A DNA stretch of 64,000 nucleotides. Origin: Candidatus Babeliales bacterium. Its GTDB lineage: Bacteria; Babelota; Babeliae; Babelales; Vermiphilaceae. Positions 260-53,429 of the stretch are shown here, piece after piece. Made by a program: the position numbers and the translations under genes. Numbering within the stretch: the stretch's first letter is position 1; each line of letters starts with the position of its first letter. The stretch spans positions 1 to 64,000 of the forward strand of contig CAVUQO010000003.1 in the NCBI GenBank assembly GCA_963743635.1. The letters run 5' to 3'. The notes beneath the pieces are model-generated. The model ran no database searches and was not told the origin of the DNA. It saw only the letters and a program-made list of their open reading frames with translations.

Positions 260-2162
260 CTATTGCATTGTTTCTCGAATTAACTTTTGAAGTTCTGCTT
301 GATCTTCGCGCCGTAGCTTTTGCCATTGAATCATATTCAAAATATTGTTAATCCAATCCATTTTACTTATCTTCTGCTTTTTATCGCGAGCCCACAGTAA
401 TAGATGTTCAAATAACGCTGTATCAAAATCAGATATTCCTGGTAATGATTTTGGCAAAAGCCCCACTATTTTTGCCGTATCATCTCGAGATCCGGTCACT
501 ACCCTATTGCCATCTGCTGATATCGCTACTGAATTAACCGAATCAGTATGCGCAAACGTATACTGCTCAATCCATGCACTGCCATTCCATGCTACTATCT
601 TTGCCGAACCATCTTTAGATCCTGTCACCACCCTATTGCCATCTGCGGATATCGCTACTGATGCAACCGAATTATTATGCGCAATATTATATTGCTCAAC
701 CCATGCATTGCCATTCCATGCAACTATCTTTGCCGTTCTATCTAAAGATCCTGTCACCACCCTATTGCCATCTGCTGATATCGCTACTGAATCAACTATC
801 ATAGTATGCCGAATCGTATACTGCTCAATCCATGCATTGCCATTCCATGCAACTATCTTCGCCGTATAATCCCAAGATCCCGTCACCACTCTCGTACCAT
901 CTGCTGATATCGCTACTGAACTAACCGTATGATTATACGGAATCATATACTGCTCAATCCATGCATTGCCATTCCACGCAACTATCTTTGCCGTCATATC
1001 AATAGATCCCGTCACCACCCTATTGGCATCTGCTGCTATCGCTACTGATAAAACCCTCCCCTCATTATGACGAATCGTATATTGCTCAACCCACGCAGCC
1101 CCATTCCATGCAACTATCTTTGCTGTATCATCTTCAGATCCCGTCACTACCTTATTGCCATCTGCTGATATCGCTACTGACCTAACCATCCCACGATGCG
1201 CAATATTATATTGCTCAAGCCATGCATTGCCATTCCACGCAACTATCTTTGCCGTGTCATCCCAAGATCCCGTCACCACCGTATTGCCATCTGCTGATAT
1301 CGCTACTGAATCAACTATCATAGTATGCGAATAGTATACTGCTCAAGCCATGCATTGCCATTCCATACATTATCTTTGCCGTTTTATCAACAGATCCCGT
1401 CACTACCCTATTGCCATCTGCTGATATCGCTACTGACAAAACTATATCATCATGCTCAATCGTATACTGCTCAAGCCATATTCCTGATCTTGGCATATTT
1501 TCCGCAATCTGCTTTTTCAAATGAGGGAACAAATTAGTTATCAATGCCACATATTCCTGATCGCCTTGACTTAACAGTCTCATTGATTCATCTGACATGA
1601 TCATATCTGCTATCTGATGCGCATAGAGCTCTAGCAATGATGCTTGCTGTAAAAAATCGGCGGCTTGTAATTGCGCTATTAATACCTCTAATGCATCTCT
1701 ATCAAACGCAACTGCCGGCATAGTTTGCATTATTCTTCTTACTGCCTGTTGCTCCGTCTCATTTAGTTGCTGCTGAGCGCGCACTTGCTCCACCCAACCC
1801 AGGTCGTTCAGCAGCTCTTGAAAAAGGTCACTGCTTATTTCAGGTAAATTTACCGCCCTTTGTTGCTGTTCTCTAAACTCCGAACTCAGCATTGCATTAA
1901 AATAATCAAATAAACGCGCTTGATTGATAGGCACATCCAATACTTTGTCATAACTCAATATCACCCTAATCATTCCTACTGGAATATCTTCCTCGTGTGC
2001 ACCTTGAAGTCGCTGCCTCTTGGTGGACTGTGCACCGCCTATATTCTTGGACATCTCTCCAGCATCACGTTTTTTGCCAGACTCTTGCTCCATTGCCCCC
2101 ATGCGCCATGCAACGATTCCAATCGCCAATACCGCAACTGCTATGATTTTATTTCTCTCCAT
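260..2162 (-). CDS. Secreted BTB/Skp1-like + 8x WD40 repeat protein (split by apparent frameshifts near 1328 and 1370)
   Basis: ORFs 1311..2162 and 260..1321 join into one paralog of the next three genes. BTB-like LFDYFNAMLSSEFREQQQRAVNLPEISSDLFQELL. Two single-base losses relative to the repeat consensus. Confidence 0.85.
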
Positions 2163-2315
2163 TTTTTCCCCCTTTTAAGATCTGATGTGAATACCTATCT
2201 CACATCTTGCATCACTTATTCTTGCAGAATTGCCCATGCAAAAACAATGAAATAATGATACGGCCCCGGGGAAGTTTATCTCTCTCCCGAGGCCGTTATC
2301 ATTTTATTCTGACTA
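2163..2315. repeat. WD40-array intergenic unit copy
   Basis: Homologous to 107-259; hairpin 2261-2295. Confidence 0.85.
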
Positions 2316-4145
2316 CTACTGCCGCACTGCACGCTGCATTGTTTCTCGAATCATTTTCTGCAATTCTTTTTTCGCAATAGACTCCACATCTCGCCATTGG
2401 ATACTTCGCAGTATATCTCCTGCCCAACCTGCTTTAGATATTTTCTGCCCACTTCTTTTTGCCCACATCAATAGATGTTCAAATAAACAGGCATCAAAAT
2501 CAGATATCCCCGGCAATGATTTTGGCAAAAGTCCCACTATCTTCGCCCTATTATCCCAAGATCCCATCACCACTTTATTGCCATCTGCTGATATCGCTAC
2601 TGATAAAACCCAATCAGTATGCGCAAACGTATACTGCTCAATCCATGCACTGCCATTCCATGCTACTATCTTTGCCGAACCATCTTTAGATCCTGTCACC
2701 ACCCTATTGCCATCTGCTGATATCGCTACTGATGCAACCGAATTATTATGCGCAATATTATATTGCTCAACCCATGCATTGCCATTCCATGCAATTATCT
2801 TTGCCGTATTATCCCAAGATCCCGTCACTACCCTATTGCCATCTGCTGATATCGCTACTGATAAAACCCTCTCAGTATGCGGAATCGTATACTGCTCAAT
2901 CCATGCATTGCCATTCCATGCAAATATCTTTGCCGTATTATCCAAAGATCCCGTCACTACCCTATTACCATCTGCTGATATCGCTACTGATTTAACCGAC
3001 TCAGCACCATGCCGAATCGTATACTGCTCAACCCATGCAGCGCCATTCCATACAACTATCTTTGCCGTTTTATCAACAGATCCCGTCACTACCCTATTGC
3101 CATCTGCTGATATCGCTACTGATAAAACCGCTTTATTATGCGCAATCGTATACTGATCAACCCATGCGTTACCGTTCCATGCAACTATTTTTGCCATATT
3201 ATCATAAGATCCCATCACCACCCTATTGCCATCTGCTGATATCGCTACTGATAAAACCTCCCTATTATGCCGAATCGTATGCTGCTCAATCCATGCATTG
3301 CCATCCCATGCAACTATTTTTGCCGTACCATCCTCAGATCCGGTCACTACCGTATTGCCATCTGCGGATATCGCTACTGACGCAACCCAATTAGTATGCG
3401 CAATCGTATGCTGCTCAATCCATGCATTGCCATTCCATGCAATTATCTTTGCCGTATTATCTAAAGATCCCGTCACCACTTTATTGCCATCTGCCGATAT
3501 CGCTACTGATAAAACCTCCCTATTATGCCGAATCGTATACTGCTCAAGCCATATTCCTGCTCTTGGCATATTTTCCGCAATATGCTCTTTCAGATGAGGA
3601 AACAAATTAGTTATCAATGCGACATATTCCTGATCGCCTTGACTTAGCAGTTCCATCGATGCACGTGATATGATCATATCTGCTATCTGATGCGCATAGA
3701 GCTCTAGCAATGTCATCTGCCCTAAATAAACTGCCCCCTCAAATGCCTTTACTAGCTGCGATAACATCTGTCGATTAAAATCAACCCGAGGCATAGCGCT
3801 TACTATTCTTCTTGCTGCTTCCTGCTCACTCTCATTTTCATGCATTTGGCGCCGCACATCTTCCACCCATGGTAAATCCGCAATCAGATGCTGCAAGATT
3901 TCTTGCGTAACATTAGTTAAGGGAACCCCATTCCTAAACCCTTCCGGATCTTCAACGCTCTCAATCAGATCATTAAGTGTCCCAAAAAGCCTTGCCTGAT
4001 CGTAAGGTAGAGTAGTAACTCCATTGTCATCTTTTGTGATCAATTTGAGCACCTGCGCTTGCCCGCCCTGCTCCATCGCGCCCATGCGCCATGCAATAAT
4101 GCCAATCGCCAATACTGCAACTGCTATGATTTTATTTCTCTCCAT
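2316..4145 (-). CDS. Secreted Skp1/BTB-like + 8x WD40 repeat protein
   Basis: Signal peptide; Skp1-like LKLITKDD...LFGTLNDLIE...VPLTNVTQEILQHLI; eight 43-44 aa repeats H..V.SVAISADGN.VVTGS.D.TAKI.AW. Confidence 0.9.
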   Translation of the reverse strand: MERNKIIAVAVLAIGIIAWRMGAMEQGGQAQVLKLITKDDNGVTTLPYDQARLFGTLNDLIESVEDPEGFRNGVPLTNVTQEILQHLIADLPWVEDVRRQMHENESEQEAARRIVSAMPRVDFNRQMLSQLVKAFEGAVYLGQMTLLELYAHQIADMIISRASMELLSQGDQEYVALITNLFPHLKEHIAENMPRAGIWLEQYTIRHNREVLSVAISADGNKVVTGSLDNTAKIIAWNGNAWIEQHTIAHTNWVASVAISADGNTVVTGSEDGTAKIVAWDGNAWIEQHTIRHNREVLSVAISADGNRVVMGSYDNMAKIVAWNGNAWVDQYTIAHNKAVLSVAISADGNRVVTGSVDKTAKIVVWNGAAWVEQYTIRHGAESVKSVAISADGNRVVTGSLDNTAKIFAWNGNAWIEQYTIPHTERVLSVAISADGNRVVTGSWDNTAKIIAWNGNAWVEQYNIAHNNSVASVAISADGNRVVTGSKDGSAKIVAWNGSAWIEQYTFAHTDWVLSVAISADGNKVVMGSWDNRAKIVGLLPKSLPGISDFDACLFEHLLMWAKRSGQKISKAGWAGDILRSIQWRDVESIAKKELQKMIRETMQRAVRQ

Positions 4146-4297
4146 TTTTCCCCCTTTTAAAAACTGATATGAATCCCTATCTCACATCTTGCATGATCTA
4201 TTGTGGCAAAATTGATGATCTAAAAACAATGAAATAATGATACGGCCCCGGGGAAGTTTATCTCTCTCCCAAGGCCGTTATCATTTTATTCTGACTA
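4146..4297. repeat. WD40-array intergenic unit copy
   Basis: Homologous to 107-259 and 2163-2315. Confidence 0.85.
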
Positions 4298-6157
4298 CTA
4301 CTGCCGCACTGCACGCTGCATTGTTTCTCGAATCATTTTCTGCAATTCTTTTTTCGCAATAGACTCCACATCTCGCCATTGGATACTTCGCAGTATATCT
4401 CCTGCCCAGCCGGATTTAGATATTTTCTGCCCACTTCTTTTCGCCCACATCAATAGATGCTCAAATAAACAGGCATCAAAATCAGATATCCCTGGTAATG
4501 ATGTTGGGAGGCATCCAACTATCTTTGCCGTACGATCTTCAGATCCCGTCACCACCTTATTGCCATCTGCTGATATCGCTACTGACCAAACCCAATGATT
4601 ATGACGAATCGTATACTGCTCAACCCATGCGTTGCTATTCCACGCAACTATCTTTGCCGTATTATCCCAAGATCCCGTCACTACCCTATTGCCATCTGCT
4701 GATATCGCTACTGATTCAATCTCAGCACCATGCCGAATCGTATACTGCTCAAGCCATGCATTGCCATTCCATGCAACTATCTTTACCGTACCATCCTGAG
4801 ATCCCGTCACTACCCTATTGCCATCTGCTGATATCGCTACTGATACAACCCAATTATTATGACGAATCGCATACTGCTCAATCCATGCATTGCCATCCCA
4901 TGCAACTATCTTTGCCGTATTATCTAAAGATCCCGTCACCACCTTATTGCCATCTGCTGATATCGCTACTGATACAACCCCAGCAGTATGCGGAATCGTA
5001 TACTGCTCAATCCATGCATTGCCATTCCACACAACTATCTTTGCCGTACCATCCAAAGATCCCGTCACCACCCTATTGCCATCTGCTGATATCGCTACTG
5101 ATCTAACCTCCCTATTATGCCCAATCGTATGCTGCTCAATCCATGCATTGCCATCCCATGCAAATATCTTTGCCGTTCTATCTAAAGATCCCGTCACCAC
5201 CTTATTGCCATCTGCTGATATCGCTACTGAACTAACCCACTCAGTATGCCGAATCGTATACTGCTCAATCCATGCATTGCCATCCCATGCAACTATCTTT
5301 GCCGTTCTATCTAAAGATCCCGTCACCACCTTATTGCCATCTGCTGATATTGCTACTGAGTTAACCGGGCTATTATGCGCAATCACATGCTGCTCAATCC
5401 ATGCATTGCCATCCCATACCACTATCTTTGCCGTATGATCTAAAGATCCGGTCACCACCTTATTGCCACCTGCTGACAGCGCTACTGATTTAACTATCCC
5501 ATTATGCCGAATCGTATACTGCTCAAGCCATATTGCTGGTATGCTTTTCACAATATGCAACGCCAGTTCAAAAGGCAACTCATTCACTAAGGCAGCGACG
5601 CCGCGACCGTATTTCTTATCGACTTGACTCAACAAGCTCATTGATGCATCGGACATGATCATGCCTACTATCTGATGTGTATACAGTTCTATTAATGCCT
5701 TTTGTTGTAAAAAATCTGCTGCCTTTAATTTAACCGCCAATGCGCTTAATCTATCTCGATTGAATGCTACCGCCGGCATGGTTTTCGCCATTCTTTTTGC
5801 CGCTTGCTCTTCAGTCTCATTTTGCTGCCTATTAATCCGCACCTGCTGCGCCCACGGCAATTCCGCTAATAATGTTTTGAAGATACCCATTGAAATAGTA
5901 TTACTGAGCGGCAATCTATTTGCTTCAGCTGGATTCATCGCCTGCATATAACCACGCATATCGCTAAACATTTCAAAAAGCCGCAGCAGATCCCATGGAA
6001 CGTCAACGCTTTCCTCATTACCAGTGCTATTGATTTGATAAACCGTTATCATTTCTTGACCAGCCTGCGCTTGCCCGCCCTGCTCCATCGCCCCCACACG
6101 CCATGCAATAATGCCAATCGCCAGCACGGCAACTGCTATAATTTTATTTCTTTCCAC
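4298..6157 (-). CDS. Secreted Skp1/BTB-like + 8x WD40 repeat protein
   Basis: GTG start; same architecture; LKAADFLQQKALIELYTHQIV resembles the Skp1/BTB C-terminal helices. Confidence 0.9.
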   Translation of the reverse strand: MERNKIIAVAVLAIGIIAWRVGAMEQGGQAQAGQEMITVYQINSTGNEESVDVPWDLLRLFEMFSDMRGYMQAMNPAEANRLPLSNTISMGIFKTLLAELPWAQQVRINRQQNETEEQAAKRMAKTMPAVAFNRDRLSALAVKLKAADFLQQKALIELYTHQIVGMIMSDASMSLLSQVDKKYGRGVAALVNELPFELALHIVKSIPAIWLEQYTIRHNGIVKSVALSAGGNKVVTGSLDHTAKIVVWDGNAWIEQHVIAHNSPVNSVAISADGNKVVTGSLDRTAKIVAWDGNAWIEQYTIRHTEWVSSVAISADGNKVVTGSLDRTAKIFAWDGNAWIEQHTIGHNREVRSVAISADGNRVVTGSLDGTAKIVVWNGNAWIEQYTIPHTAGVVSVAISADGNKVVTGSLDNTAKIVAWDGNAWIEQYAIRHNNWVVSVAISADGNRVVTGSQDGTVKIVAWNGNAWLEQYTIRHGAEIESVAISADGNRVVTGSWDNTAKIVAWNSNAWVEQYTIRHNHWVWSVAISADGNKVVTGSEDRTAKIVGCLPTSLPGISDFDACLFEHLLMWAKRSGQKISKSGWAGDILRSIQWRDVESIAKKELQKMIRETMQRAVRQ

Positions 6158-6313
6158 TTTTCCCCCTTTTAAAAACTGATATGAATCCCTATCTCATACC
6201 TTACATGATCTATTGTGGCAAAATTGATGATCTAAAAACAATGAAATAATGATACGGCCCCGGGGAAGTTTATCTCTCTCCCGAGGCCGTTATCATTTTA
6301 TTCTAATATTATG
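6158..6313. repeat. WD40-array intergenic unit copy
   Basis: Homologous to the other spacers. A partial copy (promoter side only) lies at 8162-8250. Confidence 0.85.
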
Positions 6314-8161
6314 CTACTGCATTGTTTCTCGAATTAATTGTTTCAGCGTTTCTGCAGTATTTGTTTCTGCTTTTTCCCACAAAATATGGTTTCGCATATC
6401 TCCTGCCCATCCTCTATTAGATATTTTCTGCTCACTTCTCTTTGCCCACAGCAATAGATGTTCAAATAAACAGGCATCAAAATCAGATATCCCCGGTAAT
6501 GATTTTGGCAAAAGTCCCACTATTTTTGCCGTATTATCTCGAGATCCCGTCACCACCTTATTGCCATCTGCTGATATCGCTACTGAGTCAACGTAACCAT
6601 TATGCCGAATCGTATGCTGCTCAACCCATGCGTTGCCATCCCACGCAACTATTTTTGCCATATTATCATAAGATCCCGTCACCACTTTATTGCCATCTGC
6701 CGATATCGCTACTGAAAAAATCGAATTATTATGCGCAATCGTATGCTGCTCAATCCATGCATTGCCATCCCATGCAACTATCTTTGCCGTCCTATCCCAC
6801 GATCCCGTCACTACCCTATTGCCATCCGCTGATATTGCTACTGATCTAACCGAACTATTATGCTGAATCGTACGCTGCTCAACCCATGCATTACCATTCC
6901 ATACCACTATCTTTGCCGTATTATCTAAAGATCCCGTCACTACCCTATTGCCATCTGCTGATATCGCTACTGATAAAACCCAATTATTATGACGAATCAT
7001 ATACTGCTCAATCCATGCAGTACCATTCCATGCAACTATCTTTGCCGTATTATCTAAAGATCCCGTCACTATCCTATTGCCATCTGCTGATATCGCTACT
7101 GATCTAACCTCCCTATTATGCTGAATCGCATGCTGCTCAATCCATGCAGTACCATTCCATGCAACTATCCTTGCCGTATTATCCAAAGATCCCGTCACCA
7201 CCTTATTGCCATCTGCTGATATCGCTACTGACCAAACCCAGCCATTATGCGCAATCGGAGGCTGCTCAACCCATGCATTGCCATTCCATACCACTATCTT
7301 TGCCGTATTATCTAAAGATCCCGCCACTACCCTATTGCCATCTGCTGATATCGCTACCGAATTAACCACTTGAGTATGCGGAATCGTATGTTGCTCAACC
7401 CATGCATTGCCATTCCATGCAACTATCTTTGCCGTATTATCTCGAGATCCCGTCACCACCTTATTGCCATCTGCTGATATCGCTACTGAATTAACCCAAT
7501 GATTATGACCAATCGTATACTGCTCAAGCCATATTCCTGCTCTTGGCATACTTTTCAGAATATGCAACGCCAGTTCAGGAGGCAACTCATTCACTAAGGC
7601 AGCGACGTCGTGACCGTATTTCTTATCGACTTGACTCAACAATCTCATTGATGCCTCGGACATGATCATGCCTACTATCTGATGCGTATACAGTTCTATT
7701 AATGCCTGTTGTTGTAAAAAATCTGCTGCCTTTAATTTAACCGCCAATGCGCTTAATCTATCTCGATTGAATGCTACCGCCGGCATGGTTTTCGCTATTC
7801 TTTTTGCCGCTTGCTCTTCAGTCTCATTTTGCTGCTGGTTAATCCGCACCTGCTGCACCCACGGCAAGTCCGCTAATAATGTTTTGAAGATATCCATTGA
7901 AATACCAGCGAGCAGCAATCTATTTGCTTCAGATGGATTCATCGCCTGCACATAACCACGCATATCGCTAAACATTTCAAAAAGCCGCAGCAGATCCCAT
8001 GGAACGTCAACGCTTTCCTCATTACCAGTGCTATTGATTTGATAAACCGTTATCATTTCTTGACCAGCCTGCGCTTGCCCGCCCTGCTGCATCGCCCCCA
8101 TGCGCCATGCAATAATCCCAATCGCCAATGCCGCAACTGCTATAATTTTATTTCTTTCCAC
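6314..8161 (-). CDS. Secreted Skp1/BTB-like + 8x WD40 repeat protein
   Basis: ORF 6314..8191; start placed at GTG 8161 by alignment to the paralogs; 8 WD40 repeats. Confidence 0.9.
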   Translation of the reverse strand: MERNKIIAVAALAIGIIAWRMGAMQQGGQAQAGQEMITVYQINSTGNEESVDVPWDLLRLFEMFSDMRGYVQAMNPSEANRLLLAGISMDIFKTLLADLPWVQQVRINQQQNETEEQAAKRIAKTMPAVAFNRDRLSALAVKLKAADFLQQQALIELYTHQIVGMIMSEASMRLLSQVDKKYGHDVAALVNELPPELALHILKSMPRAGIWLEQYTIGHNHWVNSVAISADGNKVVTGSRDNTAKIVAWNGNAWVEQHTIPHTQVVNSVAISADGNRVVAGSLDNTAKIVVWNGNAWVEQPPIAHNGWVWSVAISADGNKVVTGSLDNTARIVAWNGTAWIEQHAIQHNREVRSVAISADGNRIVTGSLDNTAKIVAWNGTAWIEQYMIRHNNWVLSVAISADGNRVVTGSLDNTAKIVVWNGNAWVEQRTIQHNSSVRSVAISADGNRVVTGSWDRTAKIVAWDGNAWIEQHTIAHNNSIFSVAISADGNKVVTGSYDNMAKIVAWDGNAWVEQHTIRHNGYVDSVAISADGNKVVTGSRDNTAKIVGLLPKSLPGISDFDACLFEHLLLWAKRSEQKISNRGWAGDMRNHILWEKAETNTAETLKQLIRETMQ

Positions 8162-8424
8162 TTTTCCCCCCATTTTTATATCTGATATCAATTCCTATCT
8201 CATCCCTTACATGATCTATTGTGGCACAATTGATGATCTAAAAACAATGAAGAATCAAAAAAGCCCGACAAGCTCGATGTAAGCAACCCAACATTATTGG
8301 AATCTCAATTTTCAAAAATCTGATTATTAGGCTTACTTCTCTCCTTCGCCCCTCCTCCTTTGCTAAACCAAGGGTTAAAACTCGTGGTGGAAGCGCGGAG
8401 CGCAAGAAAAAATAACTCGATTAT

Positions 8425-8469
8425 AAAAAGGAAGAGGGTGGAGTATCAAAGTCCACCCTCTTCCTTTTT
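8425..8469. terminator. Intrinsic terminator (symmetric A/T tails)
   Basis: AAAAAGGAAGAGGGTGGA-loop-TCCACCCTCTTCCTTTTT just downstream of the 8478..9818 gene. Confidence 0.8.
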
Positions 8470-8477
8470 ATATTTAC

Positions 8478-9818
8478 TTATTTTATTTTTTTCATGACTT
8501 CTTTAACCAGACCATCTATCAATTTATCTGGATGACTAAAATCAACCTGAACATTGGTTAAATTTATCTTTTGACCAAAGACTGTCCCTTGAATAGAGAA
8601 TAGCGGTGATTTGCCGGATTCGATGTCTTGCGCTGAGGCCTCAAATTTTATCTCTCTAATATCAGCAAGTTCTTTGCTCAATGCAGCAACCCCTTTACCT
8701 GCCTCACCAAGTCCTTCTGCTCCCGCTTTTGATGCTTCAAGGACGCCCTGAGCAGTTCCTTTGGCTGCTTTTAATCCTGCATTCAATTCTGTTTCTAAAC
8801 CAGCCAACTTTGCGGCTTCTTGCGCAACCCGAGCGCATGCACCCACATCAAGTTTTTTACACTTCTTTTTGTCTCTATCTAGAGACGCTTTTTGTTTTTT
8901 AATTTTATTCTGCGTATCAGCTATTTGTTTATTGAGTGCTGTATCTGCTTTATGTTCTGACCCTGAAATAGCCTTGCCCGATTCTTTTTCAAATTTAGCA
9001 GCGGCATCTTTTAAAACTTTGGCAAATTGGGCTAATGCACTTTGTTTGAACTCTCCCGCTATGCGATCTCGTTCTGGATGCTGCATATCCATCATCTCTG
9101 CAAACTTGCACTCGAAAGATCCAATCGAAAGATCGCCATGAATGCCAAATGCAGTCGGCTCTCCGCCTATAAGGTTTACTTGCACTTCAAGGCCAACATC
9201 TTTGACAACAAAACCTTTGAAATCCAATGAACCTTCCAATGCCCCGGTTACAGCAGCAGTTGTACCTGAAATTGCCATTAAGGCTTTGAACATAATAGTA
9301 TTGGCAACGCCTGTATCACTTTTGGCTTTAAGGCCTTTTGGCACCTTCATAACAATGGTACCTCCAATACCAAATGATTTTGCCGAAGGCTTTATGTGAA
9401 TGGCAAGATCAGTCATTTTCGCCGCCCCAATTTTTATTGCCCCTTTTGCAATGCTGGCTTCAAACTCCATGTTGCTGATTGGTTTAGTCACTAAACCATG
9501 GATATTCACTTTATCAATACCGCTTGGCAAGATTTTTTTTATAACATTCAATGGAGCTTTATCGAATGATAAGACGCCCGAGGCATAGACTCCCTTTGAA
9601 TATGAAATAGAAGTAACAGGATCAACGTAAGGTTTATCGACTACATTTACCTGGACACCCTCAATAGAAAAGCTTGAAAGGAGTTTTTTAACTTCCTCTA
9701 CAGTAGCATTATCGGCTGGCTTGGCTTGAGGTGCAGCACTGTGCAACATGTTGTTACAACAGATGCTCGCAAGCGCTATGAATAGAACATTTGGTATAAT
9801 GCTCAGAAATTTTTTCAC
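8478..9818 (-). CDS. Secreted hypothetical protein (beta-rich N-half, coiled-coil C-half)
   Basis: 446-aa ORF with N-terminal signal peptide; AAGGAG upstream. Confidence 0.8.
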   Translation of the reverse strand: MKKFLSIIPNVLFIALASICCNNMLHSAAPQAKPADNATVEEVKKLLSSFSIEGVQVNVVDKPYVDPVTSISYSKGVYASGVLSFDKAPLNVIKKILPSGIDKVNIHGLVTKPISNMEFEASIAKGAIKIGAAKMTDLAIHIKPSAKSFGIGGTIVMKVPKGLKAKSDTGVANTIMFKALMAISGTTAAVTGALEGSLDFKGFVVKDVGLEVQVNLIGGEPTAFGIHGDLSIGSFECKFAEMMDMQHPERDRIAGEFKQSALAQFAKVLKDAAAKFEKESGKAISGSEHKADTALNKQIADTQNKIKKQKASLDRDKKKCKKLDVGACARVAQEAAKLAGLETELNAGLKAAKGTAQGVLEASKAGAEGLGEAGKGVAALSKELADIREIKFEASAQDIESGKSPLFSIQGTVFGQKINLTNVQVDFSHPDKLIDGLVKEVMKKIK

Positions 9819-9913
9819 GATTATATCTCCTTATCAATTACCAACCGCACCACCTTGGTACGTTTATAACTGATAAGGTATACAAATAGAAAGTCGTTTT
9901 ACAAGAATATGTC

Positions 9914-11163
9914 TTAGAAATCTACCGCAAGTATAAAGCCGACGGTTGTTGCCTGAATTGAACGTTGACCATTGAACGGCATTTTTCCAAATACAGTCAA
10001 ATATGGCTTACAGCGAACATCTGGTGAAATATGTTCCGCGAAATCGTAATTCAAACTAGCGATGATATTATGCATGGTATAGCTCTGCAACGATTCAGCC
10101 ATATTGGCGACAAGATTCGAATAACAGTTTCCAAAGAGAGATATTTCATCTTCCCCATGTCTTATAAACTGATAGTCAACTTTCAATGAAAGAGCGCGTA
10201 CTATTTTTATAAAATCGATATATAAGTTGAACTGTTGCGTAAGACCCCAGTCAATATGAGCCTCTGCTTTTTGCAAAAATAATAAATCAGTTTGAAAGCG
10301 ATTTGTTTTGATGCGTCGAAGGCGTGTATTATCAAAAAAGTGAGTGAGTTCAATATCAAAGCCTGCGCGTAATGCGTCAACCAACGTGACCCGCAGACCA
10401 CCCGCGAAAATCACACCTACAGAACCATCATTGCCGTATGGAATAGCAAGAATTTTATTTTCATCGCGCTTTAGGCCAGTCGGCAAACTCAGCGCAACCC
10501 GTCCATCAATATCAACATTTTTTAGTAATGGTTTTCCTTGAGGGAATGCTTTCATCCACTCGAGCATCAGTACCAAATCGCCAAGACCTGTGCGATCCCA
10601 TCCCAGAATATCAAGGCCGCAGCCAAGTTCTTTTACATTGCACACAAAATTGTCAGTCAATCGCTCTTTAACGATCAAATCTTGATCAGTGACATCAACC
10701 GTCAAATCACGCCAACAAACATCATGCAGCCCCATTTTATACATGGGTAAGTAAGCGGCCAAAGAAAGGTTGTAGGGGAAATTATAGCGAGCGCTAAAAC
10801 CAAGACCAAAATCATACTCAAACTTGCCTGATGCGCAGAAATGTCCTCGTGTGCCATTATCTAATTCGATCGGTATTCCTATTTTGCCCGCTTCTGAATC
10901 TGGGGAAAAACCAGCAAGCTCGCAATCGCATTTTGTTCAAACGTATAAATTTGAAGTGGATTGCTTGTCACTTTCTCTTCATCAAAAGCTTTAGTGTGAC
11001 CAACTCCTTTTTCAAAATACACACCAATTTGCAATGAATAGGGAATATTTCGGTAAATAGGTCTCCATGGCCAATTATGCGGCTTGATTGCGTTCATGCC
11101 ATAGGCAGATGAAACCGCACTCAACATAAAAAGCACTAATAGCTGACGTGTGTAGTGTATCAT
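9914..11163 (-). CDS. Putative outer-membrane beta-barrel/secreted protein, frameshifted near 10880-10930
   Basis: ORF 10879..11163 (signal peptide) and ORF 9914..10762 are collinear; C-terminus GFILAVDF resembles a beta-signal. Confidence 0.55.
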
Positions 11164-11192
11164 TGTAGTTATTTCCTTACTGCTGAATAATC

Positions 11193-14031
11193 TTATTCAT
11201 TGATTTTGATGCCAAAATCTCCGGCAACAAGCCAACTTCCAGATGTCGATGAACGAAGTATCGGACCAATCAATGTGGCATTGCCATTATCGAGCACAAT
11301 TGAAGACCCATTCCTAAAGCTCCGTGTTTTGACATAGGGAGAAATAGATAAATATTTACTAATACTTTGCAACGCAATCGCTCCGTCGGTCATGAACGTT
11401 GATCGATATCCCAGGATAGGTGATAAATGAACTATTAAAGCCCTCAATATCCCCATCTGGCAACGGCAAAATGGTTGTATCATCAATGGGAGTTGTGCTG
11501 ACATCTTTAACTGAAAACCTATTTATGCGTGCACGATTTGATCCGAGATAAGCACTCAATAATTGAACCATTCCGCCATTGTCGCGCGCAAAATCTACTG
11601 GATTACCGGTTGTGGAAGCTATGATAAATTGTTGCGGAGGCACCACGCCAGTTGGTACCGGAACGAGAGTCCAATATTTATTATCATCGGTAGTAACAGC
11701 AGAAATATCATTGCCATTCGATGTGCGGAATAAACCTTTTGATGTCGCAATTAATCCAAGCTTCCCTGAAACCGCCCATCAAGAATGGTATCATTTTTAT
11801 CAAATACTAAACTGAGTTGTGATGCAACGGTTGTTGCAGTGAATGTAGGCGCCGTTGAAAGATCAATGCGATCAATGCGTTTTGCGCTTACTACATATAA
11901 GAAATTGCCATCAACAATCAATCTGCGTACAAATGAATAATCGCCGAGTGTTTTAAATGCCATACCATTCGTAAGGCCGGCAAAGTTTGGTCCTAAACCG
12001 CTTGCAGTATTCCAGCCAGAACCATCGGGTGCAGTAAGTACTGCTAATCCGCGTGAACCACCTACAAATAAATAACCTTCCTGTATTGAATCCCTATTGC
12101 GAAGCGGTATTGTATTGACGCCGATTGCTGCAGTCACTACCGGTCCAACTGCATTGAGCGCGCCGCCCTGAATAGTAAGAGACAAACTTGATCCGGTAAT
12201 AGTTTCTGAGATAGTACCGTTTTCAAACGTCAATGGATCAGTGGTATAACCACTCGTGTGAGGGCATTGCTGATCTCCTTGCGTAGAACCAGTTTCTAAG
12301 AGCGTTACGCTGTTATTACCGCCCGCAATTAATAATGATATGCCATTAAGTCCTGGCGTATTGAATGGTAGATCAACCAATCCTTGTACCCCACCTTTAA
12401 TAAGTGTGTAAGTACTATTAATTTGCGTTGCTAAACTACCAAGACCTGGATCACTCCCAACGCCCCATGTGGTGCGATTGATCGTATTAATTGAAGTATA
12501 ACTATCGCCGGTAAAATAGGTAATATTTCCTGAATCAACGGAAAGTTCTACACGGAATACGGGTTCGGTGACGCCGCCGATGTGCTGCCATGGAGTCCAC
12601 GCTTTAATCACTCCGTTTTCATCAAAGAGGGCTTGGGAAATAAACATACCTGTTTTACATGCATTATAATATCCAGAAGCTTCGCTGACACTTACAATAA
12701 CCGCATCATTACTCACAATCATCGATTCAATAGTGCCTTGGAAAATGGCTCCACCACCCACTTGCACTGCAACGTCAGTTGAACGTGGCGTCTGAGAAGG
12801 CGTTGTTGCTGGCTGCGTAAAACGTCTACGCATAAAACGAGATGGCTCAAAGCCATCATAGAATGTATAGATCGGAGAACTTTTGCTCGCTAAAACCCCA
12901 TGAATAGTTTGATCTACTACGCTCCCAAATCGGTTACGAGCGTTAATAATTGGCAATGCATAGACCGTATTTGCAGTCTCTTCGGGGGTGCCATTACCGC
13001 CTTGAACGATAACATATGAAAGGCCTGTTGATGTTTCCATGTTTGCAACGAATTGAATTGAAAGAGGTATCGATGCGCCAAGGCCACCGATAATTTGATC
13101 GCCTGCATCATCAAATGCTGAAGCTGGAGCAAATGGATACAATGTTAGAACGCCATTGAAATGGTTCACATCTACAAGCATAAAGAGATAGAGCGCCATC
13201 ACTGTAATCGCTACCGCCAACAAGCTGGAACCCGACGTAACCACGCTGCACTGCAGCATTCCATTCCATAGCGAGATTATTGGTAATAGAAGTTACCGGA
13301 CTATTGATCTTGATCGCGCTGGAATTATAACTAAAAGGAGCGCCGCCAGTACCTTGCATTAACGTATACACTGTTTTTTTATACGCCGGCTTATCGCCCT
13401 CTGCGGGAAATTCTTGATCTCTTTGTTGAAAGCTGACAGTAGTAAAAGCGCTTCCTGATTCTCCGAAAATTCCCGTATAAGCTGGCGTTAATGCCACAAG
13501 TGCCGCCGACGGCATACCGCCTCGAAAACCAACGAGCCCAACGATTTTGTTTGTTACTTGCATATTTGAATCAAGCAAAGGATTGGATGCGTAAATACTC
13601 ACATGGCTAAAGTTTGCAAAATCTCTGAACAAATAAACTTGTGTTGGATTATCTTCAGGAACCACTAAAGGAGCCGTTCTTGCATCCGTTGTTCTCATTA
13701 AATCGAGCAGCGCGATCCCTTGGTTAAATAAAGGATTCGGCTGATCGGGCACGTTATTGAACATCACGGTTTCAGGAACCAATGGTTGAACTCGGGGTGC
13801 AGTGGGATGAAATCCACTCAATGCAAAAATGTTAGCGCCCGCTTGCCCTGCACCAATGAAAATAACATCATCAATGGGGTCTCGCACTATTTTATTTACG
13901 GGAAATGAGAACGTCGTACCATCGGGAGCATAGTCATCTCCCTTGATAACTTCCGCTGCATTAAGGGAAATTACCGTAATACAACATAATAAACTATGAA
14001 TAATTCGTATTCGGGCTGATAGCAATACCAT
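11193..14031 (-). CDS. Large secreted beta-rich hypothetical protein, broken by several frameshifts
   Basis: Consecutive same-strand ORFs 13111..14031 (signal peptide), 11751..13259, 11359..11646 and 11193..11504 with similar G/T/S-rich composition. Confidence 0.6.
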
Positions 14032-33129: not shown

Positions 33130-33232
33130 CTCTCGATCGTCTTTGCGAGGACGATCGAGAGTCTTACATTAAGTCCACATTGATTAAAAATTGTTAGTTT
33201 TTCAGGGTTCTCTAAATTTGGTTCATAGTACC
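33130..33232. repeat. Collapsed RPE-like hairpin plus shared 70-bp module
   Basis: CTCTCGATCGTC-tttgcgag-GACGATCGAGAG. 33165-33232 is a reverse-complement homolog of 43524-43590. Confidence 0.8.
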
Positions 33233-33837
33233 TAATCAAGATTCGAAATTAATTGCCATATGTGCGCCCTGCCATCACTAGATGCAGTCACCACTCTATT
33301 ACCATCCGGTGAGAATGATGCTGACGTAACATCTCGATCATCACCCTCCAAGGTATGCAATAATGCCCCACTATTTGCATCCCATATCTTTGCCGTTGCA
33401 TCTTTACATGCAGTCACCACTCTATTACCATCCGATGAGAATGATGCTGAATTAACCACAGTAGTATCCCACAATGTATGTACTAGCTTCCCATTATTTG
33501 CATTCCATATCTTTGCCCTTCCATCACTAGGTGCCGTCACTACTCTATTACCATCCGGCGAGAATGATGCTGACTTAACATTTCCATCATCACCCTCCAA
33601 GCTATGCAATAATCCCCCACTCTTTACATCCCATATTTTTGTCGTTCCATCTTTAGACGCAGTCACTACCCTATTACCATCCGATGAGAATGATACTGAA
33701 TTAATCACATTACTATGCCACAATGTATGCTGATCCTTCCATGCATTCTTTACAACTGGTCGCTGCATCGCCCCCATGCGCCACACAACAATGCCCATCA
33801 CAACTACCACTGCTGCTATAACATTTTTTCTTTCCAT
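33232..33837 (-). CDS. Secreted short WD40 repeat protein (4 repeats)
   Basis: Leader MERKNVIAAVVVVMGIVVWRMGAM similar to the array genes; repeats SASFSPDGNRVVTA.D..AKIWD. Confidence 0.88.
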   Translation of the reverse strand: MERKNVIAAVVVVMGIVVWRMGAMQRPVVKNAWKDQHTLWHSNVINSVSFSSDGNRVVTASKDGTTKIWDVKSGGLLHSLEGDDGNVKSASFSPDGNRVVTAPSDGRAKIWNANNGKLVHTLWDTTVVNSASFSSDGNRVVTACKDATAKIWDANSGALLHTLEGDDRDVTSASFSPDGNRVVTASSDGRAHIWQLISNLD

Positions 33838-51965: not shown

Positions 51966-53429
51966 ATGCAAACAATGAAATCACTTTCACTATTCTTACT
52001 GCTCGCCGCACCACATGCATGCGCAATGAACATGCAAGAGATAATAATCAGCAGCACCATTGATGATGTCAGAAATATTGTACATAAAGAAAAACCGGTT
52101 GAGGAAGCAAGGCTTTTGCTCGAGGTTGCCAGCAGTCACGGGAAAAAACCTCTTTACACGCACACCGCAATTCTAGCAGGCGAAATCAAGGCTTTGGATA
52201 TCTTCCTTAAAGCAGGCGCTCCCAAAGAACAAGATGCAAAAAAAAGAACCCCGCTCCACTGCGCGCTCGATAAAGATAACACTGAGGCAATTACAGTGCT
52301 TTTTCAATATCCAGAGATGCGAGAATACGATCTGACAAGCAAGGTCAAATCAAAAGAAATGCTTCGACACTATTGCCAAGAGGTGGAGAAAGTATCTCCA
52401 CGCGAGCAAAATCCCAGCACCTGGATAGCAATGACCACCGCAATTACGCCTCCATACATTGAAGATAAACACGGAAAGCTGCCCCCTTTCTCGATCCCTT
52501 CGCACATGCGTGAGATAACGCAAGAGTTTATTGATAAGGGTTATGTGTATATACCAATGTTTTCAGAAAAAGATTCCGCAAAATATGACGCACCCTATAT
52601 AAACTCACTCAGAATGCTCCTCGGTGCAAAGGAAGTCTCTTTACCAGAGGATCTACGTCTTAAGGCACAACAATGCGTAATCTCTCATCATATAAGGTTT
52701 GGCACCATATCTGAGCTGGTCTACATAAAACAAGAATTTAACGATCAAGCCAATAATCCTTTGATCTCGCCATTATTAAAACAGATTCAATATAAAATGG
52801 CCGATCATTATGCAGAGCAATATTTAGAGGCAAAATCAAACATGTCAAATACATATTACCGAAGTTGCAAAAACTGCATACTTCTTAGTCTCACCCCCGA
52901 TGTTCAAGAACATTTTAATCAAAACAATCTCCTGACCTGGCATCTTTATAGAAAAGCACTCTTAAATAATGATCGTGATGTAATCAACAAAATCAAACAA
53001 ATTACCTCTATTGCGGATAATCAAACTACGGAATGGAATAACGCATTGGCAATGTGTGGCGAACTAAACGCTGCCCCGCATGTCACGGATGAAATGCGTC
53101 TTTGTGCAGCGAAAATTACTGCTATTGCGGACTTAGACCCTGCTTTTTTCAGACGCTCCATGAATAGAAAAACCGCAAATTTGATTCATGATTTTGGAAT
53201 CCAAGGTGGTTTCGACGATTTAGCATCACGCGTATATGATTACGTTTCAGATGATCGCATTCCATTGCGCCAATGTAATCCATTCTATCAATATCGCAAA
53301 TGCAGAGACCCTCACTTAGCAACTTATATAGCATATCTCGATCAAGATGATGCGCCTGCTGCAAGCGCAAGCACGAATCCTAACACTTCCAACAATGTTA
53401 ACGCGACAGATGAGAAGAAAGATCAATAA
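51966..53429 (+). CDS. Secreted ankyrin-repeat-containing protein
   Basis: Leader ending ACA|MN; KRTPLHCALDKDNTEAITVLF ankyrin motif. Confidence 0.75.
   Translation: MQTMKSLSLFLLLAAPHACAMNMQEIIISSTIDDVRNIVHKEKPVEEARLLLEVASSHGKKPLYTHTAILAGEIKALDIFLKAGAPKEQDAKKRTPLHCALDKDNTEAITVLFQYPEMREYDLTSKVKSKEMLRHYCQEVEKVSPREQNPSTWIAMTTAITPPYIEDKHGKLPPFSIPSHMREITQEFIDKGYVYIPMFSEKDSAKYDAPYINSLRMLLGAKEVSLPEDLRLKAQQCVISHHIRFGTISELVYIKQEFNDQANNPLISPLLKQIQYKMADHYAEQYLEAKSNMSNTYYRSCKNCILLSLTPDVQEHFNQNNLLTWHLYRKALLNNDRDVINKIKQITSIADNQTTEWNNALAMCGELNAAPHVTDEMRLCAAKITAIADLDPAFFRRSMNRKTANLIHDFGIQGGFDDLASRVYDYVSDDRIPLRQCNPFYQYRKCRDPHLATYIAYLDQDDAPAASASTNPNTSNNVNATDEKKDQ

Follow-up and report, generated by a model that had tools for sequence, protein, structure and literature searches.

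Four tandem genes near the start of the window (the whole stretch of 64,000 nucleotides that was analysed) encode proteins in which a full-length Skp1 homolog continues, within a single polypeptide and behind a Sec-type leader, into an eight-bladed WD40 propeller and a three-helix tail, with no F-box detectable by Pfam. The bacterial genome, a 1.45-Mb member of the Dependentiae, carries at least 20 copies of this Skp1-WD40 family. Relatives of its Lon protease place the bacterium in this host-dependent phylum. It lives inside protists, and we think it somewhat better than an even bet that the genes encode Sec-exported, single-chain mimics of the substrate-receptor module of SCF ligases.

Organisation of the gene array

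The four paralogs (A to D) are co-oriented on the minus strand (Table 1), and each comprises a Sec-type leader, an N-domain of 177-212 aa, eight WD40 blades of 43 aa and a tail of three helices. The N-domains of A and B are 89% identical, while the tails of B and C are 99% identical.

Table 1. Genes, protein parts and neighbouring signals of the array at 260-8161 of the window
Feature	Position	Strand	Remarks
Promoter-like site	8420-8449	minus	upstream of gene A; TTGATA, 18 nt, TATAAT; 11/12 consensus matches
Gene A	6314-8161	minus	615 aa; GTG start chosen by homology
A, leader	8093-8161
A, Skp1-like N-domain	7523-8092		subtype I
A, eight blades	~6497-7522
A, helical tail	6317-6496
Gene B	4298-6157	minus	619 aa
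B, leader	6089-6157
B, Skp1-like N-domain	5522-6088		subtype I
B, eight blades	~4496-5521
B, tail	4301-4495
Hairpin similar to that at 201-237	~4242-4279		downstream of gene B
Gene C	2316-4145	minus	609 aa
C, leader	4077-4145
C, Skp1-like N-domain	3552-4076		subtype II
C, eight-bladed propeller	2529-3551
C, three-helix tail	2319-2528
Gene D (broken)	260-2162	minus	two ORFs
D, first ORF	1311-2162		leader, 31-aa basic insertion, Skp1-like N-domain (subtype III), blade 1
D, second ORF	260-1321		blades 2-8 and tail
Terminator-like hairpin	201-237	minus	downstream of gene D; G+C-rich, 15 pairs (10 G-C), then T-run

Gene D is split by a 1-nt deletion relative to the intact blades, near 1365-1370, so that probably not all copies in the array are functional. 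An intact near-twin exists (G000:C2:1852-3777), with 86% identity in the N-domain and 95% in the tail. At the frameshift site some Logan contigs (four DNA runs, 1250-2300) show insertions at 1368-1370; these are short unitigs with cross-mapping between paralogous blades, and the insertions may stem from intact paralogs. The frameshift may be genuine or an assembly error.

The promoter-like site upstream of gene A is to be read as a consensus match only: the region holds 19 such sites, whereas 24.8 would be expected from shuffled sequences. Eukaryotic contamination as the source of the array was rejected, because the same contig bears MurJ, Lon and secretin genes and the array genes themselves carry bacterial leaders.

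The N-domain is a full-length Skp1 homolog

The N-domain is homologous to Skp1 along its full length. Its likeness to the Skp1/BTB superfamily is far beyond chance, as a profile of 20 paralogous N-domains retrieves Skp1 chains from the PDB sequences at E 2.4e-8 to 1e-3 (first 30 matches listed), and a comparison of the family with 28 canonical Skp1 proteins by hhalign gives 99.3% (E 3.8e-20, 150 columns). The best PDB alignment, at the lower of these E-values, pairs profile positions 11-136 with Skp1 residues 3-127. The hhalign alignment spans columns 6-157 of the 175 in canonical Skp1, but the C-terminal Skp1 domain of Pfam (PF01466) is absent from the matches of all 20 members (E <= 1). The N-domains fall into three subtypes with pairwise identities of 43-56%, all of them within one Skp1-like family.

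No window gene reaches the Pfam gathering score for Skp1_POZ (PF03931, 21.9 bits) when searched as a single sequence: gene C comes nearest (16.4 bits, E 0.011), while A, B and D have no match to this profile at E <= 0.1, nor have A and B any to BTB at that threshold. The gathering score for BTB (PF00651, 20.5 bits) is likewise missed; gene D comes closest with 18.1 bits (E 0.0031), in a match confined to BTB profile positions 35-69. Across 20 genomic members, eight match Skp1_POZ at E <= 1, with one paralog (L106) passing at 29.5 bits, and three match BTB at E <= 1, the gene D score being the highest. When each protein was searched entire and as a single sequence, Pfam and NCBIfam yielded WD40-type matches only, plus one sub-threshold BTB match, and a word-indexed homolog search with the N-domain recovered the genome's own 5 paralogs only.

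The earlier note had assigned the N-domains to Skp1/BTB from three short strings, all of which are present (the first in gene C, the other two in gene D). The Skp1 half of this assignment is upheld by profile, hhalign and fold comparisons. BTB proper is not supported; the Pfam comparison that the note suggested leaves the window genes below the gathering scores.

As a fold search with the full-length model returned WD40 propellers only (the best matches including the eight-bladed ODA16), the N-domain of gene C (177 residues) was modelled alone, which gave a pLDDT of 92, a pTM of 0.87 and helices at residues 138-145, 149-156 and 160-169. Every Foldseek match listed to rank 49 comes from an entry that contains Skp1, Skp1-Fbw7 and Skp1-Cdc4 among them (best E 2.7e-4, TMt 0.56-0.69). 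Skp1 also occupies the top three places in a VIA-align search of 48,161 chains (Z 9.9, rmsd 3.5, 125 aligned; Z 9.9, rmsd 4.0, 116 aligned; Z 9.1, rmsd 4.4, 124 aligned), and BTB and BTB/3-box chains follow with Z 8.8 to 7, a likeness at the superfamily level only. The model thereby predicts the BTB/POZ fold expected in the earlier note, with Skp1 first and BTB domains next.

Structures of the BTB-with-3-box type come close to Skp1 in their match to the whole model (SPOP, Z 8.8 vs 9.9, aligned over 6-177), subtype III gives sub-threshold matches to BTB rather than to Skp1_POZ, and the Asn of the AANYL stretch is replaced in 19 of the 20 members. These observations would suit adaptors for CUL3, CUL2 or CUL5, after the manner of BTB proteins and Elongin C, or proteins that bind a non-SCF partner of Skp1. 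We consider this very unlikely. At the sequence level Skp1 is a much nearer relative of the family than Elongin C, which the N-domain profile matches in the PDB only at E 0.03 or weaker, and none of the 55 PDB sequences listed at E <= 10 is a BTB chain; the hhalign match to canonical Skp1 points in the same direction.

A propeller with a variable top face

The eight WD40 blades and helical tail described in the earlier note were recovered in all four genes. Pfam WD40 (PF00400) matches 8 repeats each in A, B and C (E 8.6e-59, 3.1e-57 and 6.6e-56) and 1 + 7 repeats across the two ORFs of gene D. As modelled by AlphaFold (pLDDT 91.9, pTM 0.84), mature C has 32 strands, forming 8 blades of 4, followed by three helices, and the pLDDT of the blades is mostly above 90.

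Among 64 blades of 43 aa, high entropy is concentrated at positions 6, 8, 9, 10 and 12 (the D-A loop and the start of strand A) and at positions 28 and 30 (the B-C loop), which map to the top face of the propeller according to the strand map of the model. The bottom loops SADGN and WNGNAW are nearly invariant in the same set. dN/dS exceeds 1 at the variable blade codons, a result with some circularity in it, since variability was the criterion by which these sites had been picked.

The C-terminal tail and the missing F-box

Pfam detected no F-box in any of 20 N-domains with linker (E <= 1) or in any of 18 tails (E <= 10), and the profiles PF00646 and PF12937 found nothing genome-wide at E <= 0.01 in this genome, which is 85% complete. 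The tail has no relative in Pfam or among the PDB sequences, where the best match (E 2.5) is a designed protein.

When tail and N-domain were submitted as two chains, the tail was predicted to dock on N-domain residues 135-176 with an ipSAE of 0.71 (0.71-0.73 in three runs), against 0.02 for the best of 3 controls, although splitting one chain into two pieces is a case that tends to pass and, with custom alignments as input, the calibration is only rough. At least 90% of the contacts were common to the runs, and the partner pLDDT was 82. In this prediction the tail sits on the helices equivalent to H7/H8 of Skp1, where F-boxes bind; they would correspond to the two extra C-terminal helices through which Skp1 is described as holding the F-box (PMC1257465).

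Cullin-contact residues and the proposed mechanism

The PxPN motif in strand B3 of Skp1 is reported to be involved in contact with Cul1 (Stogios et al. 2005, PMC1257465), the one published statement on Skp1-Cul1 contact residues that a paper search retrieved. Of the four window genes, B and C retain the motif as P-L-x-N, and A (LLLAG) and D (VNLPE) have lost it. Among the 20 members in the genome, Pro is found at column 53 in 14 and at column 55 in 4, and Asn at column 56 in 7, as compared with 33, 21 and 18 of 36 canonical matches. In the helix H5 stretch (canonical LAANYL) all 20 members retain the second Ala, the Tyr/Phe and the Leu, and one retains the Asn. The suggestion of the earlier note that different N-domains engage different cullins gains no direct support: the subtypes differ at PxPN, which fits either a changed specificity or a loss of cullin binding.

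That PxPN is degraded in A, D and many paralogs also fits altered or non-canonical engagement, and would suit proteins that are decoys or inhibitors. The Skp1-like domain would then sequester a host cullin, or the propeller host proteins, with no productive transfer of ubiquitin, and host SCF activity or specific pathways would be blocked. The domain evidence is the same as for a ligase adaptor, and an F-box protein of Legionella binds Skp1 without forming an active ligase, according to a passage in a 2026 review (PMC13720258). We nevertheless regard a decoy function as unlikely, since a rigid Skp1-propeller geometry with a predicted F-box-like clasp is what a productive receptor needs, and a hypervariable top face over about 20 paralogs fits many targets better than the titration of one cullin.

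In SCF ligases, the C-terminal helices of Skp1 clasp the F-box of a separate receptor protein. For the single-chain mimic that we favour, cleavage of the leader would leave a mature protein that opens with an entire Skp1 homolog, made up of a BTB/POZ core and two C-terminal helices, and that continues in the same chain into the propeller. The conserved tail would fold back on the H7/H8-equivalent helices, replacing the F-box and fixing the propeller rigidly. A host cullin, CUL1 being the likeliest, would be engaged by the BTB/POZ face, while the hypervariable top face would bind the host proteins to be ubiquitinated. A repertoire of specificities would arise as genes are duplicated, modules shuffled and blades diversified.

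More tentatively, and with distinctly less than even confidence, we suggest that Dependentiae have made Skp1 into a secreted effector scaffold, a self-contained Skp1-propeller "degrader" with the tail in place of the F-box that needs only host cullin-Rbx1. The top face, varied over about 20 recombining paralogs, would amount to a programmable library of degraders of host proteins, and the junction A/M-[E/Q/D/N] following the leader, which would give the mature effectors an N-terminus of Met and an acidic or amide residue, would be a signature of proteins destined for the host cytosol if such an N-terminus passes for a native eukaryotic one.

Leader and export

The leader of 23 aa consists of MERNK, 14 hydrophobic residues and R-M-G-A, after which the sequence continues M-E-Q. 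The leader is conserved, and its basic n-region, 14-residue hydrophobic core and c-region ending in Ala mark it by pattern as a putative Sec (SPase I) signal peptide, for which a hydrophobic h-region of 7-15 residues and a small residue at -1 are expected. The possibility that an internal Met after the leader is the true start was rejected as the main reading, because even divergent leaders still look like signal peptides and the upstream ATG is preceded by a Shine-Dalgarno-like AAGGGGGA. Of the features read in the earlier note, the signal peptide agrees with this pattern. The note's description of an adaptor and a receptor in one exported chain is a fair account of the architecture, given that a Skp1-like domain shares its chain with an eight-bladed propeller, that a Sec-type leader precedes both and that the bacterium lives inside protists.

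The junction A/M[EQDN] recurs genome-wide: A/M occurs in 143 of 603 leader-like ORFs, and the A-M dipeptide is enriched 7.7-fold in their c-region. Under the N-degron rules, an N-terminus of Met followed by an acidic or amide residue resembles a native, stabilising eukaryotic one.

A Sec leader alone delivers a protein only to the periplasm. The genome encodes two secretins; a type II secretion system is reported as conserved in the phylum (PMC4776705) and many putative effectors of cultured Dependentiae carry Sec signal peptides (PMC6561590). In the reading favoured here, the array proteins would pass beyond the periplasm, across the outer membrane and any host membrane.

Were they instead retained in the periplasm or at the cell surface, or released outside the host cytosol, they could be binding proteins unrelated to ubiquitin, the propeller acting in adhesion or as a scaffold while the Skp1/POZ domain contributes only structure or oligomerisation. 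BTB/POZ folds do oligomerise, T1 domains being an example (PMC1257465), and the cullin-contact residues are only partly kept. Such a role is quite unlikely in our view. The alignment to Skp1 runs along the whole length, the putative F-box-binding helices included, and the invariant Ala, Tyr/Phe and Leu of H5 suggest a conserved partner surface. Skp1_POZ was found by Pfam in none of 14 control prokaryote genomes, while the family profile has relatives in 16 of 261 genomes of the Dependentiae, the phylum to which that search was confined. The phylum is moreover described as obligately intracellular (PMC4776705, PMC6561590), with Sec leaders on its putative effectors.

Comparison with known systems

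Eukaryotic Skp1 (Skp1_POZ PF03931 plus Skp1 PF01466) resembles the N-domain along the whole domain and provides the best PDB sequence and fold matches; shared features are the N-terminal beta-strands, a variable acidic loop, a B3 strand of P-x-P-L type and A-A-x-Y/F-L in H5. It is a free-standing protein of 155-200 aa, whereas in the array proteins it follows a bacterial Sec leader and forms one covalent chain with a WD40 propeller, often with PxPN and the Asn of AANYL replaced and, in the window genes, below the Pfam gathering score. Its helices take an F-box in trans, while those of the array protein are predicted to be occupied in cis by its own tail.

Fbw7/Cdc4 and beta-TrCP with Skp1 offer an architectural likeness, an eight-bladed WD40 propeller placed beside a Skp1 fold by a helical clasp on the C-terminal helices of Skp1 (predicted in the array). 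They consist of two polypeptides with an F-box, the array protein of one with no F-box detectable. Unlike in the F-box/WD40 receptors, the clasping helices are C-terminal and follow the propeller; neither Pfam nor the PDB sequences hold a match to them.

Intracellular bacteria are known to hijack cullin-RING ligases through borrowed F-box domains, and Chlamydiae also carry BTB-box domains. Described F-box effectors include Legionella AnkB and LegU1, Agrobacterium VirF and Ralstonia GALA (PMC13720258), and amoeba-associated Chlamydiae have BTB-box, F-box and RING/U-box effector families (Domman et al. 2014, PMC4209131). As presented in these sources, such effectors resemble the array in combining eukaryote-like adaptor domains of cullin-RING ligases with repeats, in intracellular bacteria of protists, in tandem arrays and with birth-and-death evolution. 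They join an F-box or BTB-box to LRR, TPR or ankyrin repeats and are substrates of type III or type IV systems; the array differs in having Skp1 itself, the adaptor that F-box effectors must borrow, in the fusion to WD40, in the Sec leader and in the phylum. The section on CRL adaptors in the 2026 review (PMC13720258) names only F-box effectors, and BTB occurs there 0 times.

Giant viruses (Pandoravirus, Mimivirus and relatives) are other parasites of amoebae that encode Skp1 homologs, and their Skp1 proteins rank first when a viral library is searched with the N-domain fold (best, Pandoravirus japonicus Skp1, E 5.2e-4). Compared by description only, they are free-standing, none with a signal peptide. 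Some viral proteins named as WD40 or BTB/POZ match the N-domain weakly, the WD40-named ones with probability 0.38-0.87 and E ~0.1.

A bacterial Skp1 fused to its own substrate receptor would, if true, be a different solution, one that sidesteps host Skp1 and the competition of F-boxes and needs only the cullin-Rbx1 core. A rigid, compact Skp1-propeller with a variable face would also give the engineering of protein degraders an interesting template from nature.

Distribution of the family

The Dependentiae are a widespread phylum of which very few members have been cultured, and our reading would add to it a candidate effector family with a concrete mechanism. The literature retrieved mentions neither a bacterial Skp1 homolog nor a Skp1-WD40 fusion, and we met with no earlier description of such an architecture in it. 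Among the relatives consulted, three bear just the name "WD40 repeat protein" and the rest have none. The architecture recurs among the relatives: WD40 is present in 31 of 43 full-length relatives, and WD40-type propeller matches occur in 11 of 13 in a set that partly overlaps these 43.

Gene array and genomic context

The Lon protease of the present genome (1,454,283 bp in three contigs, 85% complete) shares 62–75% identity with that of many MAGs labelled Dependentiae, Babeliales or TM6, which makes membership of this phylum almost certain. Protists are the hosts of its cultured members, which are described as obligately intracellular parasites (PMC4378268, PMC6561590, PMC4776705). The window, the initial 64 kb of contig C3, opens with the array that the earlier note had placed at 260-8161, and its existence is confirmed: the four co-oriented genes (A to D) possess 8, 8, 8 and 1 + 7 WD40 repeats according to Pfam, the last being distributed over the two halves of the apparently frameshifted gene D, where five bases are found between two conserved codons (near 1365-1370) that are separated by six in intact blades. 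A AAGGGGGA-type ribosome-binding site is located upstream of each of the four genes, and a G+C-rich hairpin with a T-run lies 3' of at least two of them. The GC skew of the region is strongly negative (-0.31 to -0.34).

Several plus-strand ORFs of 120–200 aa run antisense to the WD40 repeats and have repetitive translations; rather than being genes, these long ORFs most likely reflect the 129-nt periodicity of the repeats. The four ORFs adjoining the array (446, 282, 502 and 306 aa) match no Pfam family at E <= 0.001, and the N-terminus of the first is leader-like.

Coordinates of the features discussed (positions in the window unless a contig of the genome, G000, is named)
Feature	Position	Strand	Remark
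Gene A	6314-8161	minus	array gene
Gene B	4298-6157	minus	array gene
Gene C	2316-4145	minus	array gene
Gene D	260-2162	minus	array gene; two ORFs, 1311-2162 and 260-1321
Insertion in gene D	1994-2093		31 aa, directly after leader
Intact near-copy of gene D	G000:C2:1852-3777		carries the same insertion
Antisense ORFs	345-869, 2578-3156, 3226-3597, 4890-5438	plus	opposite WD40 repeats
ORFs adjoining the array	8478-14031		four ORFs
Ala-Met leaders (examples)	4077-4145, 6089-6157, 8093-8161, 33769-33837, 51966-52025		leader pattern
WD40 protein with array-type junction	33232-33837	minus	201 aa
L109	G000:C2:115078-115737		219 aa, non-WD40
Secretin gene 1	62546-64000		runs past 3' end of window
Secretin gene 2	G000:C3:68298-68780
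Contig starts adjoining arrays	1-260; G000:C2:1-3777
Broken copy	G000:C3:751807-753656
P0079	G000:C3:504704-508096		1102 aa

Identity of the N-terminal domain

The "Skp1/BTB signatures" previously noticed in the domain behind the leader (N-domain) proved to be real, and all approaches applied (profile search of PDB sequences, hhalign, Foldseek, VIA-align and a viral library) point to Skp1. When single sequences were compared to Pfam, only sub-threshold scores resulted for C (16.4 bits for Skp1_POZ) and D (18.1 bits for BTB), and the N-domains of A and B matched neither family. The assignment was settled by pooling 20 paralogous N-domains from the genome, which are 25–61% identical to that of C, into one profile. 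In a search of PDB sequences with this profile, Skp1 of human, plant, Dictyostelium and yeast origin fills the top 30 rows (E 2.4e-8 to 1.1e-3), while Elongin C ranks after Skp1 (E 0.03 or weaker) and BTB proteins are absent among the 55 sequences listed. An hhalign comparison with 28 canonical Skp1 proteins gave 99.3% probability (E 3.8e-20, 150 columns), the alignment extending to Skp1 column 157 of 175 and so taking in the C-terminal helices.

Structure comparison gave the same answer. With a model of the N-domain alone, built from 58 sequences (pLDDT 92, pTM 0.87), all rows among the best 49 listed by Foldseek are entries containing Skp1. VIA-align, which is independent of Foldseek, placed Skp1 at the top among 48,161 chains (Z 9.9, 9.9 and 9.1), with BTB and BTB/3-box domains ranking below (Z 8.8 and lower). 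Giant-virus Skp1 proteins rank top in the viral library. The N-domain is, precisely, a Skp1 domain.

Domain anatomy and the variable face of the propeller

The AlphaFold2 model of mature C (17 paralogs as input; pLDDT 91.9, pTM 0.84) consists of an alpha/beta N-domain (residues 9–167), 32 strands forming eight four-stranded blades (residues 176–516), and three C-terminal helices (residues 526–579). A Skp1 fold fused to an eight-bladed propeller, within a protein predicted to be exported, is strongly supported.

In the majority of copies, a blade has exactly 43 residues. When 64 blades of nine close paralogs are compared, entropy peaks at unit positions 6, 8, 9, 10, 12, 28 and 30, which according to the strand map of the model correspond to the D-A loop with the start of strand A and to the B-C loop, while the A-B loop (SADGN) and the C-D loop (WNGNAW) are near-invariant. 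The side of a WD40 propeller that carries the D-A and B-C loops, its top face, is the usual ligand-binding face. Over 56 blades, values of pN 0.587 and pS 0.428 were obtained for the seven variable codons, as compared to pN 0.092 and pS 0.154 for the remaining 36 codons, a suggestive contrast, although the sites were chosen for their variability, so that a ratio above 1 is not independent evidence.

Cullin-contact residues

The PxPN motif in strand B3 of Skp1 is described as involved in the interaction with Cul1 (Stogios et al. 2005, PMC1257465). We scored it in profile columns 53, 55 and 56, where P, P and N occur in 33, 21 and 18 of 36 canonical hits, in 48, 18 and 22 of 71 other leader-bearing relatives, and in 14, 4 and 7 of the 20 domains from the genome itself. 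Within the array, P-L-x-N is kept in B and C and lost in A (LLLAG) and D (VNLPE). In the helix H5 stretch, which is LAANYL in canonical Skp1, the second Ala, the Tyr/Phe and the Leu are retained in all 20 domains, the Asn in only one. Such mixed motif evidence would allow some paralogs to bind a cullin, and others to have altered their specificity or lost the interaction. Recruitment of a host cullin is a plausible candidate function, and the different N-domains might, as the earlier note proposed, engage different cullins.

A possible substitute for the F-box

F-box families gave no match in the 20 N-domains with linker at E <= 1, none in 18 tails at E <= 10, and none across the genome (85% complete). 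The tail, the three-helix segment of 60–70 residues after the propeller, is conserved between subfamilies, and no related sequence turned up in Pfam or in the PDB. When N-domain and tail were folded as two chains, with a separate alignment for each, the tail was predicted to sit on N-domain residues 135–176, the helices that align with the F-box-binding H7/H8 region of Skp1, together with the linker into the propeller. The ipSAE was 0.71 (0.71–0.73 in three runs) vs 0.02 for the best of three controls; at least 90% of the contacts were common to the runs, and the partner pLDDT was 82. In calibration, 116 of 157 solved complexes attained this mark, against 2 of 215 mismatched pairs. These counts apply only roughly here because our own alignments were used, and fragments taken from a single chain tend to score well in such predictions. 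As a prediction, the model supports docking of the tail on the H7/H8-like helices, and the tail may stand in for the missing F-box. The protein would then combine a Skp1 core, an F-box-like clasp in cis and a propeller that is held rigidly.

Relation to known effectors

The hijacking of cullin-RING ligases (CRL) by bacterial F-box effectors is well known (review PMC13720258), and amoeba-associated Chlamydiae are reported to have expanded F-box and BTB-box families (PMC4209131). In contrast to the latter, which pair these domains with LRR or TPR repeats, the array pairs Skp1 itself with WD40. Papers on Dependentiae name WD40, F-box, ankyrin and ubiquitin-related proteins, and in the text of three of them "Skp1" occurs solely in a title in the reference list of the Babela paper. 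Among the papers listed, and at abstract level, those on Skp1-like bacterial effectors concern eukaryotic or viral contexts only (supplementary tables could differ), as do those on Skp1_POZ and Skp1 homologs, with one item on a nematode secretome by title. We rate the array as an already known kind, a eukaryote-like CRL-adaptor effector; what appears to be new is the choice of Skp1 itself, its fusion, and the putative F-box surrogate in cis.

Leader and predicted export

The signal-peptide-like leader starts with basic residues, continues into a hydrophobic core of 14 residues and closes with an Ala, after which comes Met-Glu/Gln-Gln. A strict leader with Ala-Met and then E, Q, D or N is found in 93 ORFs genome-wide, and the Ala-Met junction is also present in relatives from other genomes. 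The c-regions of 603 leader-like ORFs show a 7.7-fold enrichment of A-M (138 of 874 A-X dipeptides vs 2.0% background). A-M is contained in 143 of these leaders, in 99 of which E, Q, D or N is next; the figures are rough, as the set includes non-genes and membrane proteins. An N-terminal Met followed by D, E, N or Q is typical of proteins native to eukaryotes, and under N-degron rules it is stabilising. The junction may mark effectors that are bound for the host cytosol.

Two secretin (GspD-like) genes scored 130.3 and 104.6 bits (cut-off 27.5). They fit the type II secretion components described as conserved in the phylum (PMC4776705), from which arrival in the host cytosol does not follow.

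L109, a non-WD40 protein whose gene lies immediately downstream of an array of three, also carries the array-type leader, which suggests that leaders have been shuffled among effector genes. It has a VLDVGAGDG-type motif, which we take to be a SAM-binding motif. A further protein in the window has a leader ending in WRMGA, then MQ and WD40 blades, with no Skp1-like domain.

Paralogs and mosaicism

At least 20 copies of leader plus Skp1-like domain occur at six or more places in the genome; broken ones include gene D, one elsewhere on C3, and one at the very start of C2. Skp1-WD40 arrays adjoin the starts of C2 and of C3, so a single larger array was probably interrupted by the assembly; joined, the two ends may form one array with at least six genes, which the assembler left unbridged. 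The array genes face the contig end on C3 and face away from it on C2.

The N-domains in the window fall into subtypes I (A and B, 89% identical), II (C) and III (D), with 43–56% identity between subtypes. The modules differ in their history: identity between B and C is 43% in the N-domain and 99% in the tail, between A and B 89% and 66%, which indicates that paralogs have recombined with one another. Gene D and its intact near-copy, both of subtype III, share an insertion in which about 15 residues separate two basic clusters (KKR ... KRQR), a pattern resembling a bipartite nuclear localisation signal.

Distribution and related architectures

Searched exhaustively with the profile, 1.84 billion representative proteins yielded 254 matches at E <= 1e-3, of which 63 reach E <= 1e-10. 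Of 164 locally matched proteins, 60 have at least 400 aa, the domain typically lying right behind the leader. Within the phylum, 16 of 261 genomes (this one counted) match at E <= 1e-5, scattered over 7 of 21 families, and three further genomes have tandem arrays.

An unrooted tree (FastTree, LG+gamma; 127 profile columns, 144 sequences) was restricted to matches spanning profile positions 20–125, leaving out rows identical to those from the genome. With classes assigned by our rule of thumb, one clade (support 0.975) unites all 20 sequences from the genome and 60 of the 71 other leader-bearing ones with 5 of 17 unclassified and 1 of 36 canonical-type Skp1 sequences. Among canonical Skp1 sequences, that of the amoebozoan Planoprotostelium fungivorum scores best, with canonical E-values too close to name a donor.

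WD40 repeats are present in 31 of 43 full-length relatives. Thirteen relatives, partially overlapping with these 43, were scanned singly: 11 gave matches to WD40-type propellers and one none, and one of the 13 appears to be a secreted protein with several Skp1_POZ domains. P0051, a metagenomic protein of 778 aa, has a leader and tandem Skp1_POZ domains (Pfam E 2.1e-31; five profile stretches) and no propeller, and is another way to deploy Skp1 folds. P0079, encoded in the genome itself, matches only profile positions 96–177 (helices H5 to linker), and this half-domain (residues 676–757) sits directly before a WD40 propeller, so that a helical clasp with propeller can occur without the POZ core.
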